Made by a program: the position numbers and the translations under genes. Source: a virus (taxonomy: Duplodnaviria > Caudoviricetes). Taken from it: 64,000 nucleotides of DNA. The stretch lies in IMG/VR virus record IMGVR_UViG_3300021400_000468, positions 36,469-100,468 of that record; one strand, 5' to 3'. Positions 32,341-61,857 of the stretch are shown here, piece by piece. The notes beneath the pieces were generated by a model, which was given only the letters and a program-made list of their open reading frames with translations, did no database searches and was not told the origin of the DNA. Within the stretch, counting starts at the first letter, position 1; every line of letters begins with the position of its first letter.

Positions 32341-32598
32341 TTACTCGGAATCGGAGTCACCTTCATCCGGGATGATCTCAATGTCCTTGATCTCATCTTC
32401 CCAGAGGACAAGCCCCATATCATCATCGTCAAGAGAAACCATGATCGAAGAAAACGCACCGTCCTCACGGTCACAGTCGCCCCTGCCCTCATACTCATCC
32501 ACAAAACACTTGATTGTCTTTCCGTCTGTGGTCTTGATCACAGCATGATGATCAGTGGCATGCCACATGAGATTGTCGATTTCCTTGCCCTTATCCAT
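32341..32598 (-). CDS. Small acidic protein, putative immunity protein
   Basis: 85 aa, overlaps the portal-fusion stop by 8 nt. Confidence 0.6.
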   Translation of the reverse strand: MDKGKEIDNLMWHATDHHAVIKTTDGKTIKCFVDEYEGRGDCDREDGAFSSIMVSLDDDDMGLVLWEDEIKDIEIIPDEGDSDSE

Positions 32599-35377
32599 TC
32601 TTACCCTCTGCTTTCGCTTTTTCTTCTTTCGCCTTTTCGTCCAACGCTTCCTTCAACCTCTGTTTATAATCCTTCGGTTTGGCGGGGACGAAATGACAGC
32701 CATCTTTTGCATAATGCACCGTCATACGATCCGTTTTAAGCCAGCAATCATGATCCCGATCATAGAAACGTCCAACAATCTTGCCAGCCGAGATGGTTTC
32801 CCGATAACAGGTATTACTGTCCGGCTTTCCATATGAAACACCATTTCCGTGATTTTGACTCAATATACTCTGAAGCTCTTTATCACTTACCGTGGTGTAG
32901 CTCGGAGGATTCCCATCTTTAATGCGCTGGTTATATTCGGCAGAGTCTTTCCTGTGAGGATTCTGCTTCTTCTTGTTCAGCCTATCGCTCACTATGCCAG
33001 ACGCAATTACGTAATCAAGCTGCTTGGACGGAATCTTTACGGGAGGATCATCCTGATATGATGGCGAACCTTTATTTGAAGATCCTCCTACCGATCCAGG
33101 TCTACCTCCATGTCCGAAGTTCCCGCTTCCGGGGCCTCCATCCATACTTATTATACCACCTTCTTCGTCAATTGTCAATATCTCAGACAACTTTTCAAAC
33201 AAAAGGTTCATGGATATTTTGAAGGGGCCAAACAGGTTATGACTGAATATATCGGGGATGGTACGGAACCGCTGATTATCCATTTCAAAATCGGCGGTAA
33301 TCATCTCACCCTCATACTCAGTGCAGAAGAACACAGCGGGAATAAGACCAGTATCCTCTTCAAAATCACCAAGACCGATCAACTTCAGGTTCAAGGGGGT
33401 AATGCCAAACTCTTCCTGCGTTTCCCGGACCGCAGCATCAGTTAGAGATTCACCGGGTTCCACATGACCACCGGGACCACAGAGCTGACCGAAGTGATCG
33501 ATATCCTTTCTGGTTCCGGTCAGGATCTTCATCTGCTTAAGATTCAGGACGAACACACCGACCGAACGGATACGTCGGAGAATGTCATCGTCCAACCACT
33601 CCTCGCTGGTCACATCTTCGACGGGATGGACAAGATCGGATTCGACAGCAGGAGAATCATCCTGTGATCCAGAGGCATCGTCTTCATGATCAGGTTCTTC
33701 TTCCTGATCAACCTCTTCTTGTACAGCCTCTTCTACCTGCTCAACCTCTTCCTGATCCTGCGGGAGTTTGGTAGCTTCGGGGGCGGATTCGGGGGCATTG
33801 CCGTATTCGGCATAATCATCGAAGTCGCCCTGTTCCATGAGATGACCGTCACCCTGAGCGGGTTGAGGAGCGACGCCCATCTGCGGAGCGGCACCTCCCA
33901 TGGCTTCCATACCGCCCATGCCACCTTCACCACCCTCTGCTCCCTGCTGACCCTGCGGTGCGCTTTCCATAAGCTCTTCTTCAGACATATCGTCGAGCAT
34001 GGATTCCACATCAAGATCATCGGGTTTGCCGAGGCCAACACGGACTTCTTTAGGATCGAGGACTTCCATACCGACATAGGTATTGGCAATGTTGGCACGG
34101 GTAAGCTCGTTCTGGAGCTTGGAGGATTCAAGCTGAACCTCTTCCGTCTCGGACATGGACCAAAGCGGATTGAAGGAAACTTTGAACTCCGGAACCTTCT
34201 CCACTTCCCCGGTATGCAGACCCGCCGCAAAAATCACGGAAAGCAGATACCGAAGGTTGGAGCGGAGCATCCTCTTCTGGATCCGTTCCACATAGTTATA
34301 GTAGTTCTCAAAGTCACTTTCACCGGTGGCATTCATACCGGCGGGAGAACGACCAAACAGAATGGTTTGGGGAATTGAGGTAATGGCCGAAAGCCAATTG
34401 CAAGAGGCATCGATTACTTCTTGCACTCCGGTGAATCCAAACGTCTGGAAGCTGTAATCCTCACCCTCTGCATCAATCGTAATGGAATTCAGAAGTCCGC
34501 GCGCAGTATCAATGGCCTCCAGTCTGCGGAGGACCTTATCCTCACCCTCTTCGGTTGCCAACAGGGCGGCGAGGTCCTTCATCCGATATACGGGTTGGAC
34601 GGATTTGGAAAGCATCTTCGGGGCGCTCTCATGGGCTACCTCGGCATTGCGGATGGCGCGGTTAATCCGGACGTATTCCGGAATGCCCCAAAGCCTGTAA
34701 TTCTCATAGCTGGTGTTCAGCGGAAGCATTCCGTTTCTGAACGCCAGCACACGGCTGTCATGAACCCAGAAATGCCCCCCGGTAATGGGATTGTTAATTT
34801 CATACCATTCCGGCGTACCGAGTCTGCTTCCGCGAGTTTGAAACGGATCGTTGGGTTCATGGTCGTATATCGAGGCATAATCCGGATTGATACAGGAGCG
34901 GTCAAAAACAAGGATATCATCAATGGACCGGATCCTCTTCCAGTCCAGCGGCTCTTCAAGGCCATGACCATCGTTGATGAGCATAATGGCGAGGGAACCG
35001 CCGAAAAGCCGCGCCCACTTGATTCCGGTCATTGCCACTTCTTCCCAATCAAGCTCGTCAAGGGCAGATTGGTAGAATTCAATCAGGTCCTTATCTTCAA
35101 CATCATCCAGTTCAAAACCATGCTTGACGGCTTCTTCAGCGGGAGTGTCTATGATCTTGGCAAACAGGCCGTTGTTCTCGTAGAACATCTCCAGAAGCAT
35201 ATCATCCACTACCGGTTCAGGCTGATAACGGTAGGCTTCGGTATCGTCCTTTTTGGTTCCGTACCGATTGACCATATTGACATAGCCGTCAAACCGATGA
35301 AGGGGAATCGCATTCCCGGTCTGCTTGCGCAGGACGTTTTCATATCTGCGCATATCGAATGCCATATCTCTATCCAC
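32591..35377 (-). CDS. Portal protein (DUF1073-like) fused to a Nudix hydrolase and a C-terminal Ntox50-like toxin domain
   Basis: KIIDTPAEE, WARLFGG, IPQTILFGRSPAGMNATGESD; Nudix box GGHVEPGESLTDAAVRETQEEFG; KQNPH...GKIVG...TVHYAKDGCHFVP. Confidence 0.85.
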   Translation of the reverse strand: MDRDMAFDMRRYENVLRKQTGNAIPLHRFDGYVNMVNRYGTKKDDTEAYRYQPEPVVDDMLLEMFYENNGLFAKIIDTPAEEAVKHGFELDDVEDKDLIEFYQSALDELDWEEVAMTGIKWARLFGGSLAIMLINDGHGLEEPLDWKRIRSIDDILVFDRSCINPDYASIYDHEPNDPFQTRGSRLGTPEWYEINNPITGGHFWVHDSRVLAFRNGMLPLNTSYENYRLWGIPEYVRINRAIRNAEVAHESAPKMLSKSVQPVYRMKDLAALLATEEGEDKVLRRLEAIDTARGLLNSITIDAEGEDYSFQTFGFTGVQEVIDASCNWLSAITSIPQTILFGRSPAGMNATGESDFENYYNYVERIQKRMLRSNLRYLLSVIFAAGLHTGEVEKVPEFKVSFNPLWSMSETEEVQLESSKLQNELTRANIANTYVGMEVLDPKEVRVGLGKPDDLDVESMLDDMSEEELMESAPQGQQGAEGGEGGMGGMEAMGGAAPQMGVAPQPAQGDGHLMEQGDFDDYAEYGNAPESAPEATKLPQDQEEVEQVEEAVQEEVDQEEEPDHEDDASGSQDDSPAVESDLVHPVEDVTSEEWLDDDILRRIRSVGVFVLNLKQMKILTGTRKDIDHFGQLCGPGGHVEPGESLTDAAVRETQEEFGITPLNLKLIGLGDFEEDTGLIPAVFFCTEYEGEMITADFEMDNQRFRTIPDIFSHNLFGPFKISMNLLFEKLSEILTIDEEGGIISMDGGPGSGNFGHGGRPGSVGGSSNKGSPSYQDDPPVKIPSKQLDYVIASGIVSDRLNKKKQNPHRKDSAEYNQRIKDGNPPSYTTVSDKELQSILSQNHGNGVSYGKPDSNTCYRETISAGKIVGRFYDRDHDCWLKTDRMTVHYAKDGCHFVPAKPKDYKQRLKEALDEKAKEEKAKAEGKNG
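33150..33178 (-). promoter_or_regulatory. Intragenic sigmaA consensus promoter (extended -10)
   Basis: TTGACA-attgacgaagaaggtgg(17)-TATAAT. Confidence 0.8.
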
Positions 35378-35395: not shown

Positions 35396-36805
35396 TTACA
35401 GAAGATTATTGATGTTAAACTGCGCCCTCAATTCTACTTCCGCAAAGCCATTCGCGGAGGCATCCACCATATCCTTGAACTTCCATTCCGGGAAGTTCTC
35501 AAGCTGCTCCAGATATGCCTCATTCCAGTCTGCATGAAGAATATCGAAATTTCCGGCTTGCCACTGAGCTGCCATAGGCTCTGCCCGGGACTCCTTACTT
35601 CCGGATTCAGAAACCGCCGTAACATCAAAACCGGACAACAGCTTTATGTATGACTGCGCCTGTTCCTTTCCGGCCTGACCGGGGTCCTGCGGCAACCTGA
35701 TCCGAACACGTTTGAACTCGGCCCTGTCCTTCTGTGCCGTGAGACGGATTGTCTGGCGCACATCGGAAGCAGCCATCTGTTTATTGATAACGTCCGCTAC
35801 AAGGTAACGTCCGTTTTTTCTCTTTCCTATCAACACCCCGGCTGTATACGCCGCGTCCCCGTTCTCATCCTTTTCGGTGGCGGCAAGGTCCCAGCATCTC
35901 ACCCACTGGATCACATCATTCGGAATGACCTCAAGAATATTGCCAAGCTGTGTGCGCTTGAAATACAGACCGGCACTCGGCTTGATCTTCCAGTTTCCGT
36001 AAAGAAGACGCTCCCTTTCCACAATGGACAGGGATTTCAGGTTTGCCAGATAGCTTGGGTTGACCTTCAGGAGTTCCTTATTGTCATAGATTGAAGAGGC
36101 AATAAAGGTAACGGATTTCGGCTCTTCCCTCTCTTCCGTGGTTTTGAGGTCGAACTGCTTCCACAACTCCGTTCGGCTGTCGGCCCAATACAGTTGCTCG
36201 TCACGACGGATGAACCACCTCTTGACGCCGCTTCTTTCCTGAATGGCATAACCGGAATCCTGATCAATCCACCACGAAATAAACTCCGCGACCCATGAAT
36301 TGGCGTCCGGGTTGCAAGTGGCGCGAACAAAGGGCTTTACGCCGCAGGTACTACGGTTACGGGACAGCATGTAGAAAAACTGACGCTCAGAAAAATGGGT
36401 AAGCTCATCCCAACAGATTTCCGCTATCTGCGAACCCTGCCAATTATGGACGGCATCATCTCTGTCCAAGTGGGCGAACTTTACTCTTCCGAGAATTTCC
36501 CCCTCCGGACTTCTGAACATCCACGACCCATCGCCGCCTCTCTTCTCGGCTCCGGGAATACTGTGGTATATCTTGTCGGCTTCATCCCAAAGACCGCCTT
36601 GGCTGAAGATCTGATTGTAGTTCTTACGAAAGATGGTACAGGTAAACCCCGGAACGTTTTTGTACCGCAGGGGAGTAAGCAAAAGGCCGTAGCTCTTCCC
36701 TCCACCGGCGGAACCGCCATAAATGCAGATGTCAGCGCTTGTGGCAAGAAATCGTTCCTGCGGTCCGGGCTGAGGCTTGATAATCATTGTTTCTTTTCCA
36801 GCCAT
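35396..36805 (-). CDS. terL: Terminase large subunit
   Basis: PQPGPQ, YGGSAGGGKS Walker A, WDELTHF Walker B, WDLA and DMVDA nuclease motifs. Confidence 0.92.
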   Translation of the reverse strand: MAGKETMIIKPQPGPQERFLATSADICIYGGSAGGGKSYGLLLTPLRYKNVPGFTCTIFRKNYNQIFSQGGLWDEADKIYHSIPGAEKRGGDGSWMFRSPEGEILGRVKFAHLDRDDAVHNWQGSQIAEICWDELTHFSERQFFYMLSRNRSTCGVKPFVRATCNPDANSWVAEFISWWIDQDSGYAIQERSGVKRWFIRRDEQLYWADSRTELWKQFDLKTTEEREEPKSVTFIASSIYDNKELLKVNPSYLANLKSLSIVERERLLYGNWKIKPSAGLYFKRTQLGNILEVIPNDVIQWVRCWDLAATEKDENGDAAYTAGVLIGKRKNGRYLVADVINKQMAASDVRQTIRLTAQKDRAEFKRVRIRLPQDPGQAGKEQAQSYIKLLSGFDVTAVSESGSKESRAEPMAAQWQAGNFDILHADWNEAYLEQLENFPEWKFKDMVDASANGFAEVELRAQFNINNLL

Positions 36806-37234: not shown

Positions 37235-37924
37235 TTACTTGATCGCTAACCATCCGGCGAAGTTCAGGTATCTCCAGAAGCAGTCCACTTTGGAGAATCC
37301 GGTGGTGCGAAGAAGGTCCTCATTCCAATGGGCGGTAATGGGAACCAAAACACCCTCAAGGCTTTTCCGCTTCGCGGCGATCTGTTCCTGCGTATACAGG
37401 TTGTCTGCCTTGATCTGGTAGTATTCGGTCACGAGAACGTCATCAATCTCGTCGGTATTGCCGAGGACCTTTTCCACCATAATCAAAGCACCACCGGGAA
37501 CCAGCCGGTCATAGGCACTCCGGACAATCTTCTGACGGTATTCTATCGGCGTGAACTGAAGCGTCAGAATGCTGAGAATCAGACTGCATTCAACTTCCGG
37601 AAGACCCTTCGTAATATCATACAGCCTTGCATCAATATAACCGAACCTCTTCTTCAGTTCCTCAATCATAGGCTCGCTTACATCAAGACACACATAACCG
37701 AAATCGTCTCCAAACTTCCGGACAAACGGAGCAATGGCATTTCCATTACTGCACCCGATATCCATGATGGTTGTATTCGGCTTCAGGTAATGACATCCGA
37801 TCTTTGTGACCAGCTCCCGCATATCGTTATATCCGGGAATGGAACGCTCCAGCATTTCATCGAAACAGTCAGTCACTTCCTGATCAAATTTCCATTTTCC
37901 ATCGGGCATGACCTGATCCTTCAT
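37235..37924 (-). CDS. cmoA: CmoA-like carboxy-S-adenosylmethionine synthase
   Basis: WKFD.EV...FDEM..RSIPGY, DIGCS.G, LTLQF, EK and AKRKSL motifs, matching E. coli CmoA. Confidence 0.8.
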   Translation of the reverse strand: MKDQVMPDGKWKFDQEVTDCFDEMLERSIPGYNDMRELVTKIGCHYLKPNTTIMDIGCSNGNAIAPFVRKFGDDFGYVCLDVSEPMIEELKKRFGYIDARLYDITKGLPEVECSLILSILTLQFTPIEYRQKIVRSAYDRLVPGGALIMVEKVLGNTDEIDDVLVTEYYQIKADNLYTQEQIAAKRKSLEGVLVPITAHWNEDLLRTTGFSKVDCFWRYLNFAGWLAIK

Positions 37925-38769
37925 TTCTTCAACTCCTTCGCAATGTCATTGTACACGCCAATAATGGCCTTATGCTTCTTCGGATTGTATTTGCTTGCTA
38001 ACAACCTATCATGACATTCCCTCAATCGAGAATTTATCTGATAGCTATGGTCGGTCTGGTCACGATAATATGCCCCCTTCTTATAGTAGTCATCAAACGC
38101 CTTGATGCTGGCATATTTCGGAACAGGTTTATTGATCGCCGCAAGGGAGAACTGCCCAATATAATCGAAGATGGCTGGGGTATTGTAAAAGTCCGTGTTC
38201 TTCTTTCCAAACTGTCCGGCATAACGAGCGATATTCCCAGCGGAAAAATCCAGATCATCGCTGTAGCACTTCCGATATTTGGCTACGGCCTGATCTCCCC
38301 CATCATGAAACGCAACCTGCACCTTCCTCTGGGTACAGAAAAGGTCATCTCCACCGATCCCTGTAATTATATGATTTTCATCCATACGCGCATAAATATA
38401 CTTCCACGGAATCATGCACTGAATGATGGTCTTTTTTACGAGATGACAATACGGAATGACCTCCCGGATATCCCGGTACATTCTATCCACATCGGAAGGA
38501 ACACAGATTTCAGTCAACTCAAACCCAAAATCTTTTGCCAGCTTTCTGGATGATTTCAGATCTGCGGACAAAATGCCATCCATATAGAAGGTATAACAGT
38601 GAGGCTTCCGTCCGGTCTCCAACATGGAAAACAGAACCGTTATGGAATCCGTTCCGCCGCTCAACGCAAGGGCGGAAGTCCCATCCGGATCTATCTCCTT
38701 CACACGGTCAAGGCAGATTTGCCTAAACTTATCCGCGTCCTCACGCGAGAAATGCGTTTTCCATTCCAT
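37921..38769 (-). CDS. Asparagine-synthetase-like ATP-dependent amide ligase (synthetase domain only)
   Basis: PP-loop LSGGTDS and TGIGGDDLF; no N-terminal glutaminase domain. Confidence 0.75.
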   Translation of the reverse strand: MEWKTHFSREDADKFRQICLDRVKEIDPDGTSALALSGGTDSITVLFSMLETGRKPHCYTFYMDGILSADLKSSRKLAKDFGFELTEICVPSDVDRMYRDIREVIPYCHLVKKTIIQCMIPWKYIYARMDENHIITGIGGDDLFCTQRKVQVAFHDGGDQAVAKYRKCYSDDLDFSAGNIARYAGQFGKKNTDFYNTPAIFDYIGQFSLAAINKPVPKYASIKAFDDYYKKGAYYRDQTDHSYQINSRLRECHDRLLASKYNPKKHKAIIGVYNDIAKELKK

Positions 38770-39613
38770 CTTGTTTCAGCCTTTCGCTCAATTCCTCGGC
38801 GGCTACCGCATCTGCCGTAGCTACACCATACAGATAAACCACACCCAGCAGACATTTTCCCCTGTGATGATCGAGCTGAATGAAATCATGCTCTCTCTGA
38901 TCGTAAGGAAATTCCTCATGGTAATGTGCCTTGATCTGGTCGGTATAATCGGTATAGCTCGGTCGGCAATACCTGAACGATTCATCAAGATAATACCCGC
39001 AGTCCAAAGCCACAATCAGCTTCGGCCCCCACAGCTTATCAGCACCAATGCTCTCGGCCTTATCGCAGGTGGATACACAGGTAACCACCACATCGCACTC
39101 ATTGAGGAGCTGCATGGTATCACTGGTATCAACAGATACATTGCGGCAGACGGACATAAAATCGCCCACGTTCTTCGCATAATTGCGAGGGGATCCGCGC
39201 ACGACAATATCCTCAACCCCAAACGCTTTCTGGATCGCTATGCAGTTGGCGAGGTTGGTTCTTCCGGTTCCGATAAAGCCGACCTTATGTACTTCACCAA
39301 CATTCATTAACCGAATAGCAAGAGCTGTCATGGCGCCGCAGCGATATCTGGTCAGACCGGCATCGAAAAAACGTAGAGTCTTATGACCGTCATGAATATC
39401 GATGATCTCACTGGTCTCTCCACTCTCATCATCGATGGAGATCACCTTTTCTACTAAATTGCCCTTGACGGTTTTTGCGGACATATAGGTATCGGTTTCA
39501 ACAGCAACGCCGGAATCGTTCCTACGGCTTACATTCACTGATTTGGGATCGCAAAGGGAATCTGCGGTTCCGATCTTTGCGCTCCAATATTCATTGACAA
39601 ACCTTGAAAGCAT
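38741..39613 (-). CDS. Ornithine cyclodeaminase/mu-crystallin-like protein
   Basis: DAGLTRYRCGA..ALA followed by Rossmann VGFIGTG; DVVVTC. Confidence 0.65.
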   Translation of the reverse strand: MLSRFVNEYWSAKIGTADSLCDPKSVNVSRRNDSGVAVETDTYMSAKTVKGNLVEKVISIDDESGETSEIIDIHDGHKTLRFFDAGLTRYRCGAMTALAIRLMNVGEVHKVGFIGTGRTNLANCIAIQKAFGVEDIVVRGSPRNYAKNVGDFMSVCRNVSVDTSDTMQLLNECDVVVTCVSTCDKAESIGADKLWGPKLIVALDCGYYLDESFRYCRPSYTDYTDQIKAHYHEEFPYDQREHDFIQLDHHRGKCLLGVVYLYGVATADAVAAEELSERLKQDGMENAFLA

Positions 39614-39616
39614 GAC

Positions 39617-40714
39617 TTACTTTCCTATCTTATCCAGAATCTCAGTCTGTATGGTTTTGGAGATATGCATCATCATAACAGGGGGAACCATCCTTCCCGC
39701 TCTTTCCCACTTCTGACGGAAATCGCCGGTCAGTTTGAAATCATCGGGAAGGGACGTAATCCTCTTCAGTTCTTCAATGGTGAACTTCCGATCCTCCAGC
39801 GGGTGCATGTTTCCAGCAGAACTTAACGCGCCGCTCGAAGCCAGAACAGTGGAGCACGGGCAATACATGGATTCTCTGGAAAGATTGAACCATGAGCCGT
39901 TCATAACACTGGATCCCTTAACCGGACGCGGAGGATTCTTCGGGAGCTTTTTCAAGATCTGGGCCAGCTTCGTGGACTTGATCCCCTCGCGAAGCATATC
40001 GGCTTCTTCACGGTTATAGCTTACACCTTCAAAGGCATCTTTCAGCGTATAGTAATACGGAAGCGGTTTCGGGAAAACCGGATCCATATTCAGATCATTT
40101 CTCACCCCTACAAAAATGACACGCTCACGAGCCTGTGGAACACCAAGCCACTTTGAATTAAGAAGCTGTGCCTTGGCACGATATCCGCAGTTCTTCATAT
40201 CATTCAGGAAGATCTTGAAATACCCGATTGCGGTTCCCTTCACAAGACCGCTTACATTCTCGGCAACGAAGCACTTGGGCTGAAGATCATTCAGGAGACG
40301 GATATACTCGTAAAACAGGGTTTCAATCTGTTGGACCTTCCCATCGGAATAGTCACGTTCCTTCCCCCAGCCCTTCTCTCTTTTACCGGCAGTAGAAAAC
40401 GCACAACAGGGCGGAGACCCATCAAACAGATCAAGCTCTCCCTGCTTCAGTCCGGTACGGTCGAATATATCCTGTGCCTTGACCTGACGAATATCTCTCG
40501 TATCCAGATAGGCATCCGGATGGTTCATGCGGTATGTTCTCTGAGCTTCTTCCACAAACTCATTGGCCCATACGACATGATATCCTGCCATGCGATAACC
40601 GAGGCAGGAACCACCACCGCCGCTGAAGGTCGAAACGACTTTATATCCATTCCACGGAATCGCTTCGATCTCCTCCATGCTCGGCACTTTATAGGGGGGC
40701 TTAGTTCCACTCAT
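39617..40714 (-). CDS. C5-cytosine DNA methyltransferase homologue, probable carboxymethyltransferase
   Basis: FSGGGG (I), GSPPC (IV), ENV (VI), QARER (VIII); motif X reads GRMVPP instead of GN(A/S)VP. Confidence 0.85.
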   Translation of the reverse strand: MSGTKPPYKVPSMEEIEAIPWNGYKVVSTFSGGGGSCLGYRMAGYHVVWANEFVEEAQRTYRMNHPDAYLDTRDIRQVKAQDIFDRTGLKQGELDLFDGSPPCCAFSTAGKREKGWGKERDYSDGKVQQIETLFYEYIRLLNDLQPKCFVAENVSGLVKGTAIGYFKIFLNDMKNCGYRAKAQLLNSKWLGVPQARERVIFVGVRNDLNMDPVFPKPLPYYYTLKDAFEGVSYNREEADMLREGIKSTKLAQILKKLPKNPPRPVKGSSVMNGSWFNLSRESMYCPCSTVLASSGALSSAGNMHPLEDRKFTIEELKRITSLPDDFKLTGDFRQKWERAGRMVPPVMMMHISKTIQTEILDKIGK

Positions 40715-41201
40715 ATCCACACTCCGGACAAATCCATTTTACTGCCATCTCTTCCGTGAACTCCTTGAACTCGGGCGGAACCTCATCCTCTTCAACCTCC
40801 GGGGGTTCCTCTTCCGGATCATAATCCGCAGAATCACCGTCAAGGGAAGAGAAATCAAGGTCAAATCCCTCGAAGTCAAGCCCTTCCCGGTCGGTTTCCA
40901 GAAGCTCATAATCCCACGGGCTTTCATTGGTCTTGTTATCAACGATCCGAAGCTCTCGGATTTCCTCTTCCGTCAGGTTATCGGCGACCACGCAGGGGAC
41001 TTCATTCATCCCCAAATACTTAGCGGCCTGAAAACGGCATTCACCGATGACGATCTCTCCATCAACAGTAATTACGATAGGCTGCCGGAACCCATACCTC
41101 TGAATGGAGTTGGCAACATTCTTAATCTGCCTGTTGTCATGTATCTTCGCGTTCTTGCTGTACCCATGCAAGAAGCTAATGGACTTCATCTCAATTTTCA
41201 T
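40701..41201 (-). CDS. ParB/sulfiredoxin-like protein with C-terminal CxxC
   Basis: NAKIH, SIQRYGFRQPIV, LRIVDNK, CPECG. Confidence 0.8.
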   Translation of the reverse strand: MKIEMKSISFLHGYSKNAKIHDNRQIKNVANSIQRYGFRQPIVITVDGEIVIGECRFQAAKYLGMNEVPCVVADNLTEEEIRELRIVDNKTNESPWDYELLETDREGLDFEGFDLDFSSLDGDSADYDPEEEPPEVEEDEVPPEFKEFTEEMAVKWICPECGYEWN

Positions 41202-41677
41202 TTGCCAAGCCTCCGCGCAATCGCTCCACACCGAGGGCATCTGCACACCTCTTCGGTTTTTTCTGCCGGTTCCTTCTTCTCCTTCGGCTGAACATCGCCC
41301 GGATCCTCAAACAGATCATCGAACATAGGCTCAAAACCGTCAAAACCAAGATCGCTGATATCATCCTTCAGGACTGCATAATCCCATGGACTTTCGTTCA
41401 GCTTATTGTCTACGATCCGAAGCTCCTGAATCTCCTCATCGGTAAGATCATCCGCATAGGTAACAGGAACGGTTTCAAGACCGAGGCGCTTTGCCGCAAG
41501 CAGTCGGCAATGACCGATGATTACGACGTTGTTTGCATCCACAACAAGAGGCTGACGCCAGCCAAAACGCTTAATGGAATTGGCTACGTTAGACACCTGC
41601 ATCTCACTATGGATCTTGGCGTTCATATCGTAAGGTATCAGATCGGACACCTTTACTTCCTTAACAACAATTGACAC
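41198..41677 (-). CDS. ParB/sulfiredoxin-like protein with C-terminal CxxC (paralogue)
   Basis: NAKIH, FGWRQPLVVD, GHCRLLAAK, LRIVDNK, CPRCG. Confidence 0.8.
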   Translation of the reverse strand: MSIVVKEVKVSDLIPYDMNAKIHSEMQVSNVANSIKRFGWRQPLVVDANNVVIIGHCRLLAAKRLGLETVPVTYADDLTDEEIQELRIVDNKLNESPWDYAVLKDDISDLGFDGFEPMFDDLFEDPGDVQPKEKKEPAEKTEEVCRCPRCGAIARRLGK

Positions 41678-41696: not shown

Positions 41697-42509
41697 TCAG
41701 ACTGTCAGATATTTATAGGGGGTTATCAGCCCCCATTCCGCAAACTTCTCAAATCCACCGATCTTGTTGATGAACCCCCTCGCCAGCTCAACTATAAGCT
41801 GGTACTCTATTCCGTTCACGGTATCATCCCCAATAGCGCAACACAGCTCCACAGGCTTTCCGTCATGCTGGGCAAGGAGCCAAGCATATATGTTCACGCT
41901 CACATCGGCCTTGGAAAGATCCTTCCCATGAAGACCGCCTCCGGTAACGGAATCCCCCATATCACTCCCCAGCTTACGATTGGTGGCCCCGGTATCCACA
42001 TCCGTACCGCCAGTCCATTCACCCAGCGGATTGATAACGGCACCGGGGAACTTTGCGGTCAAATCTTCATTCGCTGCGTTGCTCTGGCAAATAATCAGCT
42101 TGTCATCCTTTTCGGACAGAATATACTTCCCGTCACTTTGATATGTTCTGTACAGCTCTTCCGCGATCCCGGTGAGCTTTCTCTGCTCTTCTGTAACCGG
42201 AACCCCTTTGAAAATGCCATTGTCTCCGCATCGGAATCCATGAGCCTGATTATCGGCAAGGTGGGCATCCTGCGGGACAATATCATATTCCACACAAATA
42301 GGACCGGCAATCCTGTGGATTATCTCTTCGGCCTCTCTCCACGAAATCCGAACCGAGGATTCCATGATAACATTGCAAAGGCCATGACCGATCAACACCT
42401 CAACGGCGATCTTCGGATCATGTTCCTTTTTATAGGCCAAATCGACAAGCGCTCCCGCTATGCGATCCGCAATCTTATCCGGATGGGCGGGATTCACCTT
42501 CTCAAACAC
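41697..42509 (-). CDS. metK: S-adenosylmethionine synthetase-like protein (short phage form)
   Basis: HPDKIADRIA, GDNG, GG...DTGATNRK, GGGLHGKDLSKAD. Confidence 0.8.
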   Translation of the reverse strand: MFEKVNPAHPDKIADRIAGALVDLAYKKEHDPKIAVEVLIGHGLCNVIMESSVRISWREAEEIIHRIAGPICVEYDIVPQDAHLADNQAHGFRCGDNGIFKGVPVTEEQRKLTGIAEELYRTYQSDGKYILSEKDDKLIICQSNAANEDLTAKFPGAVINPLGEWTGGTDVDTGATNRKLGSDMGDSVTGGGLHGKDLSKADVSVNIYAWLLAQHDGKPVELCCAIGDDTVNGIEYQLIVELARGFINKIGGFEKFAEWGLITPYKYLTV

Positions 42510-58983: not shown

Positions 58984-58986
58984 AAA

Positions 58987-59057
58987 CAGGGGATGAAGGG
59001 CTCGAACCTTCTCCGTGGGTTCCAAAGACCCATGTACTACCGTTATACGAATCCCCC
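58987..59057 (-). tRNA. tRNA-Gln(UUG)
   Basis: GGGGGAT/ATCCCCT acceptor; TGGGT-CTTTGGA-ACCCA; GAAGG-TTCGAGC-CCTTC. Confidence 0.85.
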
Positions 59058-59062
59058 AAATC

Positions 59063-59494
59063 TCAAGCCATTACTTCATGAACACTCACATAATACCGGT
59101 CCGGAAGGTAGTCTGCATAGGCGACGGTCTTTCTCTGTCGGTAAATCTTGATTCCGGATCCATCATCAACTGTCATCCAGACATACTTCACATTGTTGCT
59201 GTACCTCGGATCATTCACCCGATACTCCTGTCCGGGCTGGATAATGAAACGGGTTTCTTCTGGCTCTGCAAAGAACTCAATGAACGCCCCGTAATCTCCA
59301 ATTACAATCCTGTCATAGAAATCACAGACCTTCGTTCCTTTTGAGGTGAACAGAGGACGATCATCTCCATCAACCTTCAGCCACCCCGGAACATTATCCA
59401 GAAAATACTGCCGATACTTCTCAGACAGATCACCGGGAAGGGGTTTATAGCCATACTTCTTAGCAAGCAGGGCTTCGATTCTCAACGTATTCAT
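59063..59494 (-). CDS. Hypothetical protein within the tRNA cluster
   Basis: 143 aa; RIVIGDYGAFIE motif. Confidence 0.65.
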   Translation of the reverse strand: MNTLRIEALLAKKYGYKPLPGDLSEKYRQYFLDNVPGWLKVDGDDRPLFTSKGTKVCDFYDRIVIGDYGAFIEFFAEPEETRFIIQPGQEYRVNDPRYSNNVKYVWMTVDDGSGIKIYRQRKTVAYADYLPDRYYVSVHEVMA

Positions 59495-59513
59495 TTGCTT
59501 TCCTCTTCATCAA

Positions 59514-59559
59514 TGGGGGCGGAGGGACTCGAACCCTCACGCCTTTCGGCTTCAGATTA
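59514..59559 (-). pseudogene. Orphan 3' half of a class II (Leu-like) tRNA
   Basis: AATCTGAAGCCGAAAGGCGTGAGGGTTCGAGTCCCTCCGCCCCCA with no matching 5' half. Confidence 0.7.
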
Positions 59560-59561
59560 TA

Positions 59562-59643
59562 TGGGGGATATGGGATTCGAACCCACACACCTTAAGGCAG
59601 TTGTTTTTGAGACAACCCTGTTTTCCCATTACAGCAATCCCCC
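59562..59643 (-). tRNA. tRNA-Leu(CAA)
   Basis: GGGGGAT/ATCCCCC-A; GTTGT-CTCAAAA-ACAAC; long variable arm; GGTTCGAATCC. Confidence 0.85.
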
Positions 59644-59647
59644 ATTT

Positions 59648-60190
59648 TTAGATATATTTCCATATAACACCAAAACAAGATTTTCGATAACCCTTTGTTG
59701 CTCTCCAAATCATAGTTTTTACTTCGGCAAAGGGCAAATTCTTTTCCTGACTATAATACCTCGCCGCATCAGATAGACTATCAAACTCCTTGACAATGGC
59801 TCCGAGTTTAGTTTTCCCCGCTATTGGCTTACTTCTGGATTTCCCAATTTTCTTTTTCAAAACTTCTTTCGCATGGAACATATTTTCCTGCGGTGTCACC
59901 CACTCTAAATTCTCCAATTTATTATTGTTGTGGACTCCATCAATGTGGTTTACTTGCAGATCATCTGCTTTATCACAAGGATCGAATTGCATTAAAACCA
60001 ATCTATGAACAGAATAGGAACACGGCGTCCCATTCTTCATCAAAGTTACGATTTCATATCCACGCGGATTAAGGGAAGTCTTAAAGGGCTTTCCTCTTTT
60101 GGTATATACAACCCCATTTGTATCTATCATGTAATCCTCATGCCCTTTTATCCTTTCTCTCCTATACAACTCAACCACCTCATTTTCCAA
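59648..60190 (-). CDS. HNH homing endonuclease (I-HmuI/NUMOD-like)
   Basis: SVHRLV..F, VNHIDG...NN...NLEWVT..EN..HA; EFDSLSDAAR; AT-rich relative to flanks. Confidence 0.85.
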   Translation of the reverse strand: MENEVVELYRRERIKGHEDYMIDTNGVVYTKRGKPFKTSLNPRGYEIVTLMKNGTPCSYSVHRLVLMQFDPCDKADDLQVNHIDGVHNNNKLENLEWVTPQENMFHAKEVLKKKIGKSRSKPIAGKTKLGAIVKEFDSLSDAARYYSQEKNLPFAEVKTMIWRATKGYRKSCFGVIWKYI

Positions 60191-60194
60191 TTTT

Positions 60195-60569
60195 TAAGAT
60201 CGCCCCACCTGACCCCGATTCTCACTATTGATACTCTACGCCGAAACACTGTCAGTTGGTTTGCGTAGCCTCTCCAAAACTTCCTCGCCTCTCATAGCTC
60301 AGACCGGGGCCGGGTAGGACTTCCCCAAAAACGACAGTCGCTTCTACGCACGTTGCCACCAGCGCGGGATGCGCACACAACCCTTGGCGGACCGTCGTTC
60401 CGTTCATTCTATACCAGCCGTTGCATTTATTATTGACCCTCTATGTACGTTCCCCGGTCTTACGTGCCGGTAGGATCATAACGCCGTTGTACGGAAGCTC
60501 CGCAGTAAGGACTACGGAACTTTTTACCTCCATCCCTTTTGATGGCAACGGACCGGATGGGCGATCCTA
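60195..60569 (-). ncRNA. Candidate ~375-nt structured non-coding RNA
   Basis: 11-bp terminal helix TAGGATCGCCC/GGGCGATCTTA enclosing several internal stems; no credible ORF. Confidence 0.55.
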
Positions 60570-60591
60570 TGTCGCTTCCAGATCAATTTGA

Positions 60592-60664
60592 TTGCGCGGG
60601 CAGGATTCGGACCTGCGGCCTCCAGCTTATGGGGCTGGCGAGCTGACCTCTGCTCCACCGCGCT
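60592..60664 (-). tRNA. tRNA-Met(CAU), initiator-like
   Basis: AGCGCGG/CCGCGCA with 1:72 mismatch; TGGAGCAG D arm; CCAGC-CCCATAA-GCTGG; atypical T loop TCCGAAT. Confidence 0.7.
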
Positions 60665-60666
60665 AT

Positions 60667-60813
60667 ATAGGGGGACGGGATTTGCACCCGTCATGGGCCG
60701 ACGTCTGCCCGGATTGGAGGGAATCGAACCCATAGGGGAAGTACCAGATTACGTTTTTATCCGTACCCCTGTCACCTGACCGTCTCCGCGTCTACCTATT
60801 CCGCCACCCCAGT
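60667..60813 (-). ncRNA. tRNA-like scaffold RNA A
   Basis: TGGCGGAATAGGTAGACGC D arm, variable insert, GACGGG-TGCAAAT-CCCGTC. Confidence 0.6.
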
Positions 60814-60818
60814 TCAGA

Positions 60819-60928
60819 TTATGCGGGAGAGGATTTGCACCTCTCATATCGGTTTTCAGAATTGAGCAACCGTGAACCGACGAAAGGCTCAAATCTGGAT
60901 GTGCGTCTACCTATTCCGCCACCGCATA
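60819..60928 (-). ncRNA. tRNA-like scaffold RNA B
   Basis: TATGCGG/CCGCATA acceptor; identical D arm; GAGAGG-TGCAAAT-CCTCTC. Confidence 0.65.
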
Positions 60929-60933
60929 CTGTT

Positions 60934-61158
60934 CAGCGAAGGTGAGGATTTGCACCTCACATGGGAATGTTATTGCAACCTCGCACGACCGGGAGTCGAA
61001 CCCGACCGTAGGGGGAGTCGAACCCCTATTCACACTCCTCTTGACACCGTGAAATCAGCGTCTACTCTTTACGGCCTGACTGGTCATCCGCCTTTACCAT
61101 GATGCAGAGGCCGGGTGGCATTCCGGTCCCTACACCCTGTCTATTCCGCCACTTCGCC
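60934..61158 (-). ncRNA. tRNA-like scaffold RNA C (inserts in D loop and anticodon position)
   Basis: GGCGAAG/CTTCGCT acceptor; TGGCGGAATAG...GTAGACGC split by an insert; GTGAGG-TGCAAAT-CCTCAC. Confidence 0.6.
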
Positions 61159-61160
61159 GA

Positions 61161-61239
61161 TGGGACATGTGGGATTCGAACTCACATCTCACGGTACTTT
61201 CACCGTTGCGCCGCGTTTTGCCAATTAAACTAATGTCCC
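61161..61239 (-). tRNA. tRNA-like gene with aberrant anticodon arm (undetermined)
   Basis: GGGACAT/ATGTCCC-A; recognisable D and T arms; anticodon region GCGGCGCAACGGTGAAAGTACCGTG. Confidence 0.55.
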
Positions 61240-61454
61240 TGTGCAGAAATCCCTTGTACTTCAGGACCTTGACGGCATCCTGCCAGTGCCGACTCAACAC
61301 TTTACCTTTTACTTCTCGTGGAGTTTGGAAGAAGGCTCCGGATTTTATACTCTCGTACCAGATGTGCACCTCTGGCGGCTCCAGAGCAAGCCGTTTTGAT
61401 GTTCGAGATTTTGCGCTGCGTTCATGCCGCCGTCTTCGCATCTCTCCCACCAAA

Positions 61455-61527
61455 TGGGACGTGAAGGATTTGAACCTTCGGCTACCGAATTATGAGTTCG
61501 GTCCCATAACCACTTGGGTAACGTCCC
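61455..61527 (-). tRNA. tRNA-CAU (elongator Met or Ile2)
   Basis: GGGACGT/ACGTCCC-A; CCGAA-CTCATAA-TTCGG; GGTTCAAATCC. Confidence 0.85.
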
Positions 61528-61615
61528 TTGTTGATGCGGAATCGGTTGGCCTTCCCGATTTACAGCCCCGCATCATGACCGGATATGCGCTCTGACCTCC
61601 AGCATATCGGTGTAG

Positions 61616-61690
61616 GGATCCCGCCCGGATTTGAACCGGTGATTTACGGGTTTATACCGCCCGTCGCTTTATCCATTAAGCCACAGGACC
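61616..61690 (-). tRNA. tRNA-like gene with 9-nt anticodon loop (undetermined)
   Basis: GGTCCTG/CGGGATC; ACGGG-CGGTATAAA-CCCGT; GGTTCAAATCC. Confidence 0.6.
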
Positions 61691-61695
61691 ATATA

Positions 61696-61780
61696 CGCCG
61701 GGGGTGGGATTCGAACCCACGGAGGATTCATCCTCTTCGGTGTTCAAAGCCGCTGCCTTAGACCTCTCGACCACCCCGGC
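61696..61780 (-). tRNA. tRNA-Ser(UGA)
   Basis: GCCGGGG/CCCCGGC-G; loop TTTGAAC; long variable arm; anticodon stem has two mismatches. Confidence 0.75.
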
Positions 61781-61784
61781 AAAG

Positions 61785-61857
61785 AGCTGACGGAGGGAGT
61801 CGAACCCTCAATCTGACGCTTACAAGACGCCCGCTCTGCCAATTGAGCCACGCCAGC
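61785..61857 (-). tRNA. tRNA-Thr(UGU)
   Basis: GCTGGCG/CGTCAGC-T; GGCGT-CTTGTAA-GCGTC; GGTTCGACTCC. Confidence 0.85.

Follow-up and report, generated by a model that had tools for sequence, protein, structure and literature searches.

Which amine is attached to DNA by an amide ligase that carries no glutaminase domain, and what is contributed by a gene of the ornithine cyclodeaminase (OCD)/mu-crystallin type that overlaps the ligase gene? This question is raised by a locus in a stretch of 64,000 nucleotides from a Caudoviricetes virus, here referred to as the window, which covers positions 36,469 to 100,468 of record IMGVR_UViG_3300021400_000468 and thus takes up the final 64 kb of this IMG/VR entry (100,468 bp, rated as 100% complete by CheckV). 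An earlier note on this DNA had proposed that the OCD-like enzyme is a dedicated partner of the ligase, supplying its amine or reducing an intermediate, that the resulting base goes beyond a simple carboxamide, and that co-occurrence of the genes should be surveyed in other genomes. Here we report a fixed pairing of the OCD-like gene with a single clade of short ligases. The best explanation for the operon ParB-ParB-CmoX-OCD-ligase-CmoA would be hypermodification of the cytosines of the phage DNA, and we see an even chance that the OCD-like enzyme makes a non-standard amine of the amino-acid type, which is then attached by the ligase.

The reference for this kind of pathway is the CmoA-CmoX-CmoY system of Synechococcus phage S-B43, in which SpCmoY, a protein of 271 aa without glutaminase domain and the one characterised short ligase, ligates glycine to 5-carboxymethylcytosine (5cxmC) (Yang et al., Nat Commun 2025, PMC12783734). 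For many other clusters of CmoY-like ligases the amine substrates were stated to be unknown, and a carboxamide was only inferred for the cluster of glutaminase-fused ligases (Yang et al., 2025). The lack of a glutaminase domain, which the earlier note had pointed out, is therefore not unusual in itself, and the simple carboxamide is the wrong baseline for comparison, as SpCmoY attaches glycine; the dedicated partner itself is borne out by a conserved, translationally coupled OCD-like gene in a CmoX/CmoA cassette. Similar to S-B43, the window encodes adjacent CmoA and CmoX candidates, a glutaminase-less ligase of about 270-280 aa and ParB proteins, but it differs in its gene order and in the additional OCD-fold gene between CmoX and ligase. 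Moreover, the amine used in S-B43 is glycine, while the window ligase falls into a separate clade.

The CmoX-OCD-ligase-CmoA gene string

Nearly all genes of the window are encoded on the minus strand. The gene string runs in the order MetK-like, ParB_N, ParB_N, CmoX, OCD-like, ligase, CmoA-like, a 139-aa gene, large terminase and portal, and its four-gene core CmoX-OCD-ligase-CmoA spans window positions 37235-40720 (Table 1). The coordinates given earlier for the ligase and the OCD-like gene are exact matches to open reading frames (ORFs), and the overlap of the two genes was confirmed and amounts to 29 nt. As CmoX and the OCD-like gene are separated by a gap of only 3 nt and ligase and CmoA overlap by 4 nt, the four core genes are almost certainly co-translated.

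The CmoX candidate matches the Pfam family DNA_methylase (E 1.2e-54) and is 45% identical to SpCmoX of S-B43. Carboxymethyltransferases were reported to be recognised by an SPPC motif together with an arginine in motif X, R350 in SpCmoX, which binds the carboxyl group of carboxy-S-adenosylmethionine (carboxy-SAM) (Yang et al., 2025). Both are present in the candidate: its catalytic GSPPCCAFS aligns with GSPPCSAFS of SpCmoX, and R343 within GRMVPP corresponds to R350, a position that is invariant across SpCmoX and all related loci. For the CmoA candidate the best NCBIfam match is the CmoA model TIGR00740 (E 4.2e-41), the score of 141 bits not reaching the equivalog cut-off (193); it also matches phrog_4752 (E 8e-73) and shares 29% identity with the biochemically tested SpCmoA. 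The two ParB_N genes are matched by Pfam with E-values of 1e-10 and 3e-7, and a ParB gene is situated upstream of CmoX in nearly all of 80 related IMG/VR loci, in agreement with the association of ParB with carboxymethylcytosine genes noted before (Yang et al., 2025). By every sequence-level criterion the window cassette is thus of the CmoA-CmoX-CmoY kind.

Linkage of the OCD-like gene to a clade of short ligases

Genomic contexts of homologues were collected from assemblies, IMG/VR, GTDB genomes and JGI metagenomes and scored with hidden Markov models (HMMs) built in the analysis. OCD loci were scanned with a 34-sequence alignment as query, an 88-sequence alignment being too diverse, and ligase loci with an alignment of five ligases (a single-protein query gave no matches). 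The co-occurrence survey was positive: 27 distinct OCD-like sequences were recovered, 19 of which lie in CmoX cassettes on metagenomic and viral contigs, with OCD-like identities of 32-55% and a conserved gene order. The pairing is thus not a matter of chance. These cassettes occur in two forms. The four-gene form ParB-CmoX-OCD-LigA-CmoA accounts for 7 of the 19 (the window, L008, L009, L013, L022, L117 and the cut contig L001), while the remaining 12 show the five-gene form ParB-CmoX-OCD-LigB-LPG_synthase_C-CmoA, the LigB of which is strongly diverged with only 24-29% identity to the window ligase. In the OCD tree the two forms are interleaved, so the same OCD lineage works with both ligase types.

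The additional gene of the five-gene form, located between ligase and CmoA (L005:8714-9610; L014:8587-9444), resembles LPG_synthase_C, the C-terminal part of MprF with an aminoacyl-tRNA transferase fold (PF09924, E around 1e-16), and suggests that the base may be extended further by an aminoacyl group.

In an unbiased sample, made up of the 80 IMG/VR CmoX loci nearest to the window CmoX, the ligase is absent from 32 loci; a short ligase is encoded upstream of CmoX in 24, a glutaminase-fused ligase in 16, and an OCD-like gene together with a ligase in 8. A ligase without OCD-like gene was thus found in 40 loci and an OCD-like gene without ligase in none, and in all eight loci that possess both the OCD-like gene is placed directly 5' of the ligase gene. 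In one contig (L127:243-1952) the OCD-like gene even reads in frame into the ligase's own ATG with no stop codon in between, resulting in an ORF of 569 aa; this is a single contig, in which a sequencing error is possible, that turned up by chance, and a search among longer proteins gave no fused OCD-ligase forms.

Neither the text of Yang et al. (2025) nor the other literature searched describes the OCD-like partner, the ligase clade dedicated to it or the five-gene form, the words cyclodeaminase, crystallin, dehydrogenase, NAD and reductase do not occur in the main text of that study, and no paper on the four-gene form was found in the literature searched, in line with the claim of novelty made before.

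The ligase

The sole Pfam match of the 282-aa ligase is Asn_synthase (residues 33-145, E 2.9e-8), including the PP-loop motif LSGGTDS; Pfam shows only the synthetase part and no glutamine amidotransferase (GATase) domain, which upholds the earlier view that the enzyme needs a free amine. It aligns to SpCmoY with 22.8% identity over 92% of the query (E 5e-12). Sibling CmoX loci encode ligases of 472-488 aa with GATase_6/7 and Asn_synthase domains, so the missing glutaminase domain is real and does not originate from a truncated ORF call. The start at MEWK... is supported by the homologue from L009, which begins alike and shows a similar overlap with the OCD gene next to it.

A quick maximum-likelihood tree was calculated for 44 ligases. 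The 12 ligases linked to an OCD-like gene were all located on one side of a branch with a support of 92 in the Shimodaira-Hasegawa-like approximate likelihood ratio test (SH-aLRT), apart from the SpCmoY-like and from the glutaminase-fused ligases. As the window ligase is placed outside the SpCmoY branch, glycine is not to be assumed as its amine. The glutaminase-fused CmoY-like ligases (e.g., L057, 472 aa) resemble the window ligase in being encoded between CmoX and CmoA and in the family of their synthetase domain; however, they possess their own ammonia-producing GATase, are encoded without OCD gene and form a separate branch of the tree. Sister to the OCD-linked ligases is the LigA-type ligase of the OCD-less locus L031 (support 99). 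In the L031 cassette a 124-aa gene of no assigned identity and a thymidine kinase gene are found in place of the OCD gene, and its CmoX homologue (L031:2405-4594, 729 aa) is split by an intein with Hint and LAGLIDADG domains.

Fold and family of the OCD-like protein

Pfam PF02423 matches the OCD-like protein with 31.7 bits (cut-off 24) over residues 86-186 only, i.e., the Rossmann part. The complete two-domain fold, composed of a dimerisation/substrate domain and a Rossmann domain, was confirmed for the AlphaFold2 model, which was calculated with 34 homologues and reached a predicted local distance difference test score (pLDDT) of 90.5 and a predicted template modelling score (pTM) of 0.89. 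The first 46 matches of this model in the PDB by Foldseek (E 1e-12 to 5e-8) all belong to the OCD/mu-crystallin family, the best of them (E 1e-12 to 1e-9) with template modelling scores normalised to the query (TMq) of 0.65-0.78 and with 6t3e, 1u7h, 4bv9, 7cxs, 5gzm, 6rqa, 1omo and 4mp6 at the top. These neighbours comprise Pyr2C reductase, ornithine and lysine cyclodeaminases, mu-crystallin (CRYM), CmnK, SbnB, iminosuccinate reductase and archaeal alanine dehydrogenase (AlaDH). A structure search in the ESM Atlas agrees with the two-domain fold, and by hhalign the family aligns to canonical OCD proteins over 272 columns with a probability of 99.8% (E 4.6e-30).

The OCD-like proteins are nevertheless set apart from the canonical members. 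An exhaustive profile search of 1.84 billion representatives gave 117 OCD-like clusters (50% identity) with E-values of at most 1e-10; the last full-length members of the family appear near E 1e-11 and the first canonical OCD proteins near E 3e-7, and nothing but fragments lies in this interval. None of the cut-offs of the NCBIfam equivalogs for Pyr2C reductase, LhpI, archaeal AlaDH and tyramine oxidase subunit B is reached; the best NCBIfam score is 38.8 bits compared to a cut-off of 266 (PRK07340), and the OCD and cyclodeaminase models give 18-20 bits compared to cut-offs of 350-417. On these profile comparisons the OCD-like proteins are a distinct, divergent and mainly phage-borne branch of the OCD/mu-crystallin superfamily. 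The family is acidic with a median isoelectric point (pI) of 5.5, similar to CmoA, which hints at a small molecule as its substrate. When the OCD-like protein was searched by tblastn in the genomes of 50,697 isolated phages, no match was obtained, and the OCD-containing form is known only from metagenomes.

Active-site and cofactor residues

In 88 diverse members of the family K24, K56, R91, G115, G117, G263 and D268 are invariant and T88, D204, G206, R214, D222, Q226, F235 and D238 nearly invariant. In the HMM alignment P22-x-K24, K56 and T88-x-x-R91 fall on MPPK, GLKW and TSLRTG of AlaDH (1omo), with equivalents in CRYM and in 8j1c. We take this K/R-K-R triad to be the clamp for the α-carboxylate of the substrate in the OCD family.

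The GxGxxG dinucleotide motif is intact. At the end of strand β2 the family shows R/K-G-S-(P/K/R)-(R/K) without an acidic residue, which aligns with WNRTKEN of the NADPH-binding CRYM and with FSPS of the NADP-binding 8j1c and not with YDVREK of the NAD-binding AlaDH. This suggests NADP(H) as cofactor, and it would favour a reductase over an NAD+-dependent cyclodeaminase.

The canonical G-x-D loop ("ig.d"), presumably the site of the catalytic aspartate of cyclodeaminases (Asp228 of Pseudomonas putida OCD), falls into an alignment gap of the family, so the active site appears to be remodelled. In its place the family-specific motif D-x-G-Y-x-L-x-E-S-F-R is found, and D204 is 2-4 residues away from the canonical position.

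Two groups of characterised enzymes come closest. The NAD(P)H-dependent imine reductases of the OCD family (6t3e, CRYM 4bv9, 6rqa, 8j1c) have the same two-domain fold (TMq 0.71-0.78), the GxGxxG motif and the K/R-K-R clamp, and the β2 end without acidic residue is common to the OCD-like proteins, CRYM and 8j1c, the latter being an NADP-dependent amino-acid dehydrogenase. In contrast to these reductases, to which it is only 13-16% identical, the OCD-like protein has some 30 residues fewer and is encoded by phages, in linkage with genes for DNA modification. SbnB and CmnK, which act in the formation of L-2,3-diaminopropionate for siderophore and antibiotic ligases, share its fold as well (Foldseek E 1.5e-11 for 7cxs and 4e-10 for 4mp6), and their logic is the one proposed here, i.e., an OCD-fold enzyme feeding a non-proteinogenic amino acid to an ATP-dependent ligase. 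However, SbnB and CmnK are NAD+-dependent, unlike the NADP-type strand end of the OCD-like protein, and no partner dependent on pyridoxal phosphate of the SbnA/CmnB type was found in the annotated genes of the module or in those next to them. For these two reasons, formation of diaminopropionate is not supported for the window.

OCD-like genes in other contexts

More distant OCD-like genes were also found in phage or prophage cassettes that resemble DNA-modification islands and in which neither CmoX nor CmoA is encoded within the examined flanks (L002-L004, L026, L118). In L002-L004 the order is ABC permease, SsuA/TauA-like binding protein, OCD-like, 267-aa PP-loop protein, ParB-like, a 376-aa protein similar to 3'-phosphoadenosine-5'-phosphosulfate (PAPS) reductase, and ParB. 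A prophage in an Oscillospiraceae metagenome-assembled genome (MAG; L118) encodes a polytopic membrane protein, OCD-like, ParB-like, PAPS-reductase-like, ParB, terminase and portal, and L026 encodes ParB, OCD-like, two small genes, an asparagine-synthase-like protein and HNH. PP-loop ATPases and ParB are the partners of the OCD-like gene that recur across contexts. The position of transport genes directly before the OCD-like gene in two unrelated settings suggests a free, possibly imported, small-molecule substrate. The cassettes with transport and PAPS-reductase-like genes (L002:4303-10068; L118:5931-10199) are situated just upstream of the terminase and may constitute a second, undescribed DNA-modification system.

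A further group of OCD-like genes (L113, L115, L119 and similar) is near-identical and located beside an IS110 transposase in contigs that binning placed in several rumen MAG taxa unrelated to each other, and these orphan copies are probably a mobile or mis-binned element. The group nests within the cassette clade of the OCD tree and looks like a stray derivative.

A proposed pathway and its alternatives

By homology to the S-B43 system, the CmoA candidate would make carboxy-SAM, the CmoX candidate would transfer the carboxymethyl group onto C5 of cytosine, and the short PP-loop ligase would adenylate the carboxylate of 5cxmC and couple it to an amine. The OCD-fold enzyme, the substrate of which would be a small α-amino, α-imino or α-keto acid, probably acts as imine reductase or reductive aminase with NADPH as cofactor and less likely as cyclodeaminase. 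The final base would be an amide of 5cxmC other than the published glycine adduct. Phenylpyruvate is a by-product of the CmoA reaction, and its recycling to phenylalanine was considered as a one-for-one supply of the amine; this idea was down-weighted because the OCD-like family also occurs with no CmoA in reach (L002-L004, L026, L118).

Several observations weigh against amine supply by the OCD-like enzyme. The LigA-type ligase of L031, 44% identical, does without an OCD gene, and orphan OCD-like copies without ligase exist in rumen Clostridia-type contigs. The NADP assignment follows a rule of thumb for sequences, and the remodelled active site may catalyse a chemistry unlike that of any known member. 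The pI was dropped as an indicator of DNA binding, as it is a weak criterion given that the DNA-acting SpCmoY is acidic as well. Finally, kin share contexts, and the synteny counts are not independent events; they stand for a stable linkage and not for many independent origins.

The conserved carboxylate clamp would equally suit an α-amino-acid end that is already tethered to DNA. The ligase might first attach an amino acid, e.g., a diamino acid via its side-chain amine, and the OCD-like enzyme might then oxidise, reduce or N-alkylate the tethered end, an order of events that we regard as unlikely. It would fit that ParB DNA-binding genes always stand alongside the OCD-like gene and that one OCD lineage is combined in the OCD tree with LigA as well as with LigB plus LPG_synthase_C, two very different ligase types, so the OCD step is not tied to one ligase pocket. 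However, active sites of the OCD fold are buried between the two domains, and we know of no OCD-fold member that acts on a macromolecule; the acidic character of the OCD-like protein also speaks against such a tailoring step, and the transporter genes adjacent to it elsewhere point to a free small-molecule substrate.

It seems improbable that the OCD-like enzyme serves as ammonia donor in place of the glutaminase domain, by cyclodeamination of ornithine or lysine or by oxidative deamination of an amino acid, which would give a plain carboxamide (5-carbamoylmethylcytosine). OCD-family cyclodeaminases and alanine dehydrogenase do release ammonia, the order OCD-then-ligase mirrors the order GATase-then-synthetase of the domains in the 472-488-aa sibling ligases, and the two genes are translationally coupled and in one contig fused in frame. 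A direct replacement is hard to reconcile with the tree, which shows no sister relationship between OCD-linked and glutaminase-fused ligases, and the NADP-type strand end speaks against an NAD+-dependent cyclodeaminase. Furthermore, the LPG_synthase_C-type enzyme of the five-gene form needs an amine or hydroxyl acceptor, and a primary amide offers neither. If ammonia were the only product needed, it would also be hard to explain why other phages have transporter genes next to the OCD-like gene.

That the OCD-like gene stands outside the DNA pathway, as an auxiliary metabolic gene for proline/pipecolate supply or redox balance or as a catalytically dead remnant carried with the cassette, would agree with the ligase-less orphan copies beside the IS110 transposase in bacterial-looking contigs and with the 72 of the 80 nearest CmoX cassettes that do without it, but is very improbable in view of position and coupling being kept at 32% identity, cofactor and substrate residues being invariant over 88 members, the recurrence in unrelated cassettes, again with PP-loop and ParB genes at its side, and the OCD-ligase fusion in one contig.

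The genetic lock of the OCD-like enzyme to one ligase clade offers a direct and cheap experimental handle on the amine of this ligase. The pairing points to a DNA base without catalogue entry, and the OCD-like branch with its remodelled active-site loop is met again in other cassettes of putative DNA modification. Novel amide handles in DNA matter for the evasion of phage defence and for enzymatic DNA labelling. A broader scheme, which we put forward tentatively and consider rather doubtful as a whole, is that this phage-specific OCD-like family makes a non-proteinogenic amino acid for DNA, that PP-loop ligases from two or more kinds of cassettes attach it (one dependent on CmoX/CmoA and one with ParB, PAPS-reductase-like and transporter genes), and that the aminoacyl-tRNA-dependent transferase of the five-gene form extends it to peptide-like cytosine adducts. 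If true, such adducts on cytosine would constitute a base chemistry without prior description.

Neighbouring genes and further features of the window

The features of the module are collected in Table 1. The MetK-like protein at the head of the gene string aligns to S-adenosylmethionine (SAM) synthetases via the motifs listed there, lacks about 110 residues and may supply SAM. No homologue of it was found beside the other CmoX loci examined, and it was therefore rejected as a member of the module.

Table 1. Positions in the window of the OCD-like gene, its ligase partner and the surrounding genes of the putative DNA-modification operon.
Feature	Coordinates	Strand	Basis
OCD/mu-crystallin-fold NAD(P)(H) enzyme, 290 aa (P0001)	38741..39613	-	Pfam, AlphaFold2, Foldseek, hhalign
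CmoY-type ATP-dependent amide ligase, 282 aa (P0002)	37921..38769	-	Pfam Asn_synthase, phrog_26038, SpCmoY alignment
CmoX-type DNA cytosine C5-carboxymethyltransferase candidate, 367 aa	39617..40720	-	Pfam DNA_methylase, SpCmoX identity, motifs
CmoA-type carboxy-SAM synthase candidate, 229 aa	37235..37924	-	TIGR00740, phrog_4752
ParB_N-domain genes, tandem pair, upstream of and overlapping CmoX	40701-41246, 41198-41677	-	Pfam ParB_N
Minimal MetK-like protein, 270 aa, head of the gene string	41697-42509	-	HPDK and GG..GKD..K.D motifs

Downstream of the operon core, the portal protein (928 aa, window 32591-35377, minus strand) carries a NUDIX domain (residues 602-699) and an Ntox50 toxin-like domain (residues 800-898) in its C-terminal part, which may be packaged or injected cargo. 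A cluster of seven tRNA genes is located at window positions 58986-61857 on the minus strand, encoding tRNAs for Gln, Leu, Met (two genes), Ile-TAT, Ser and Thr.

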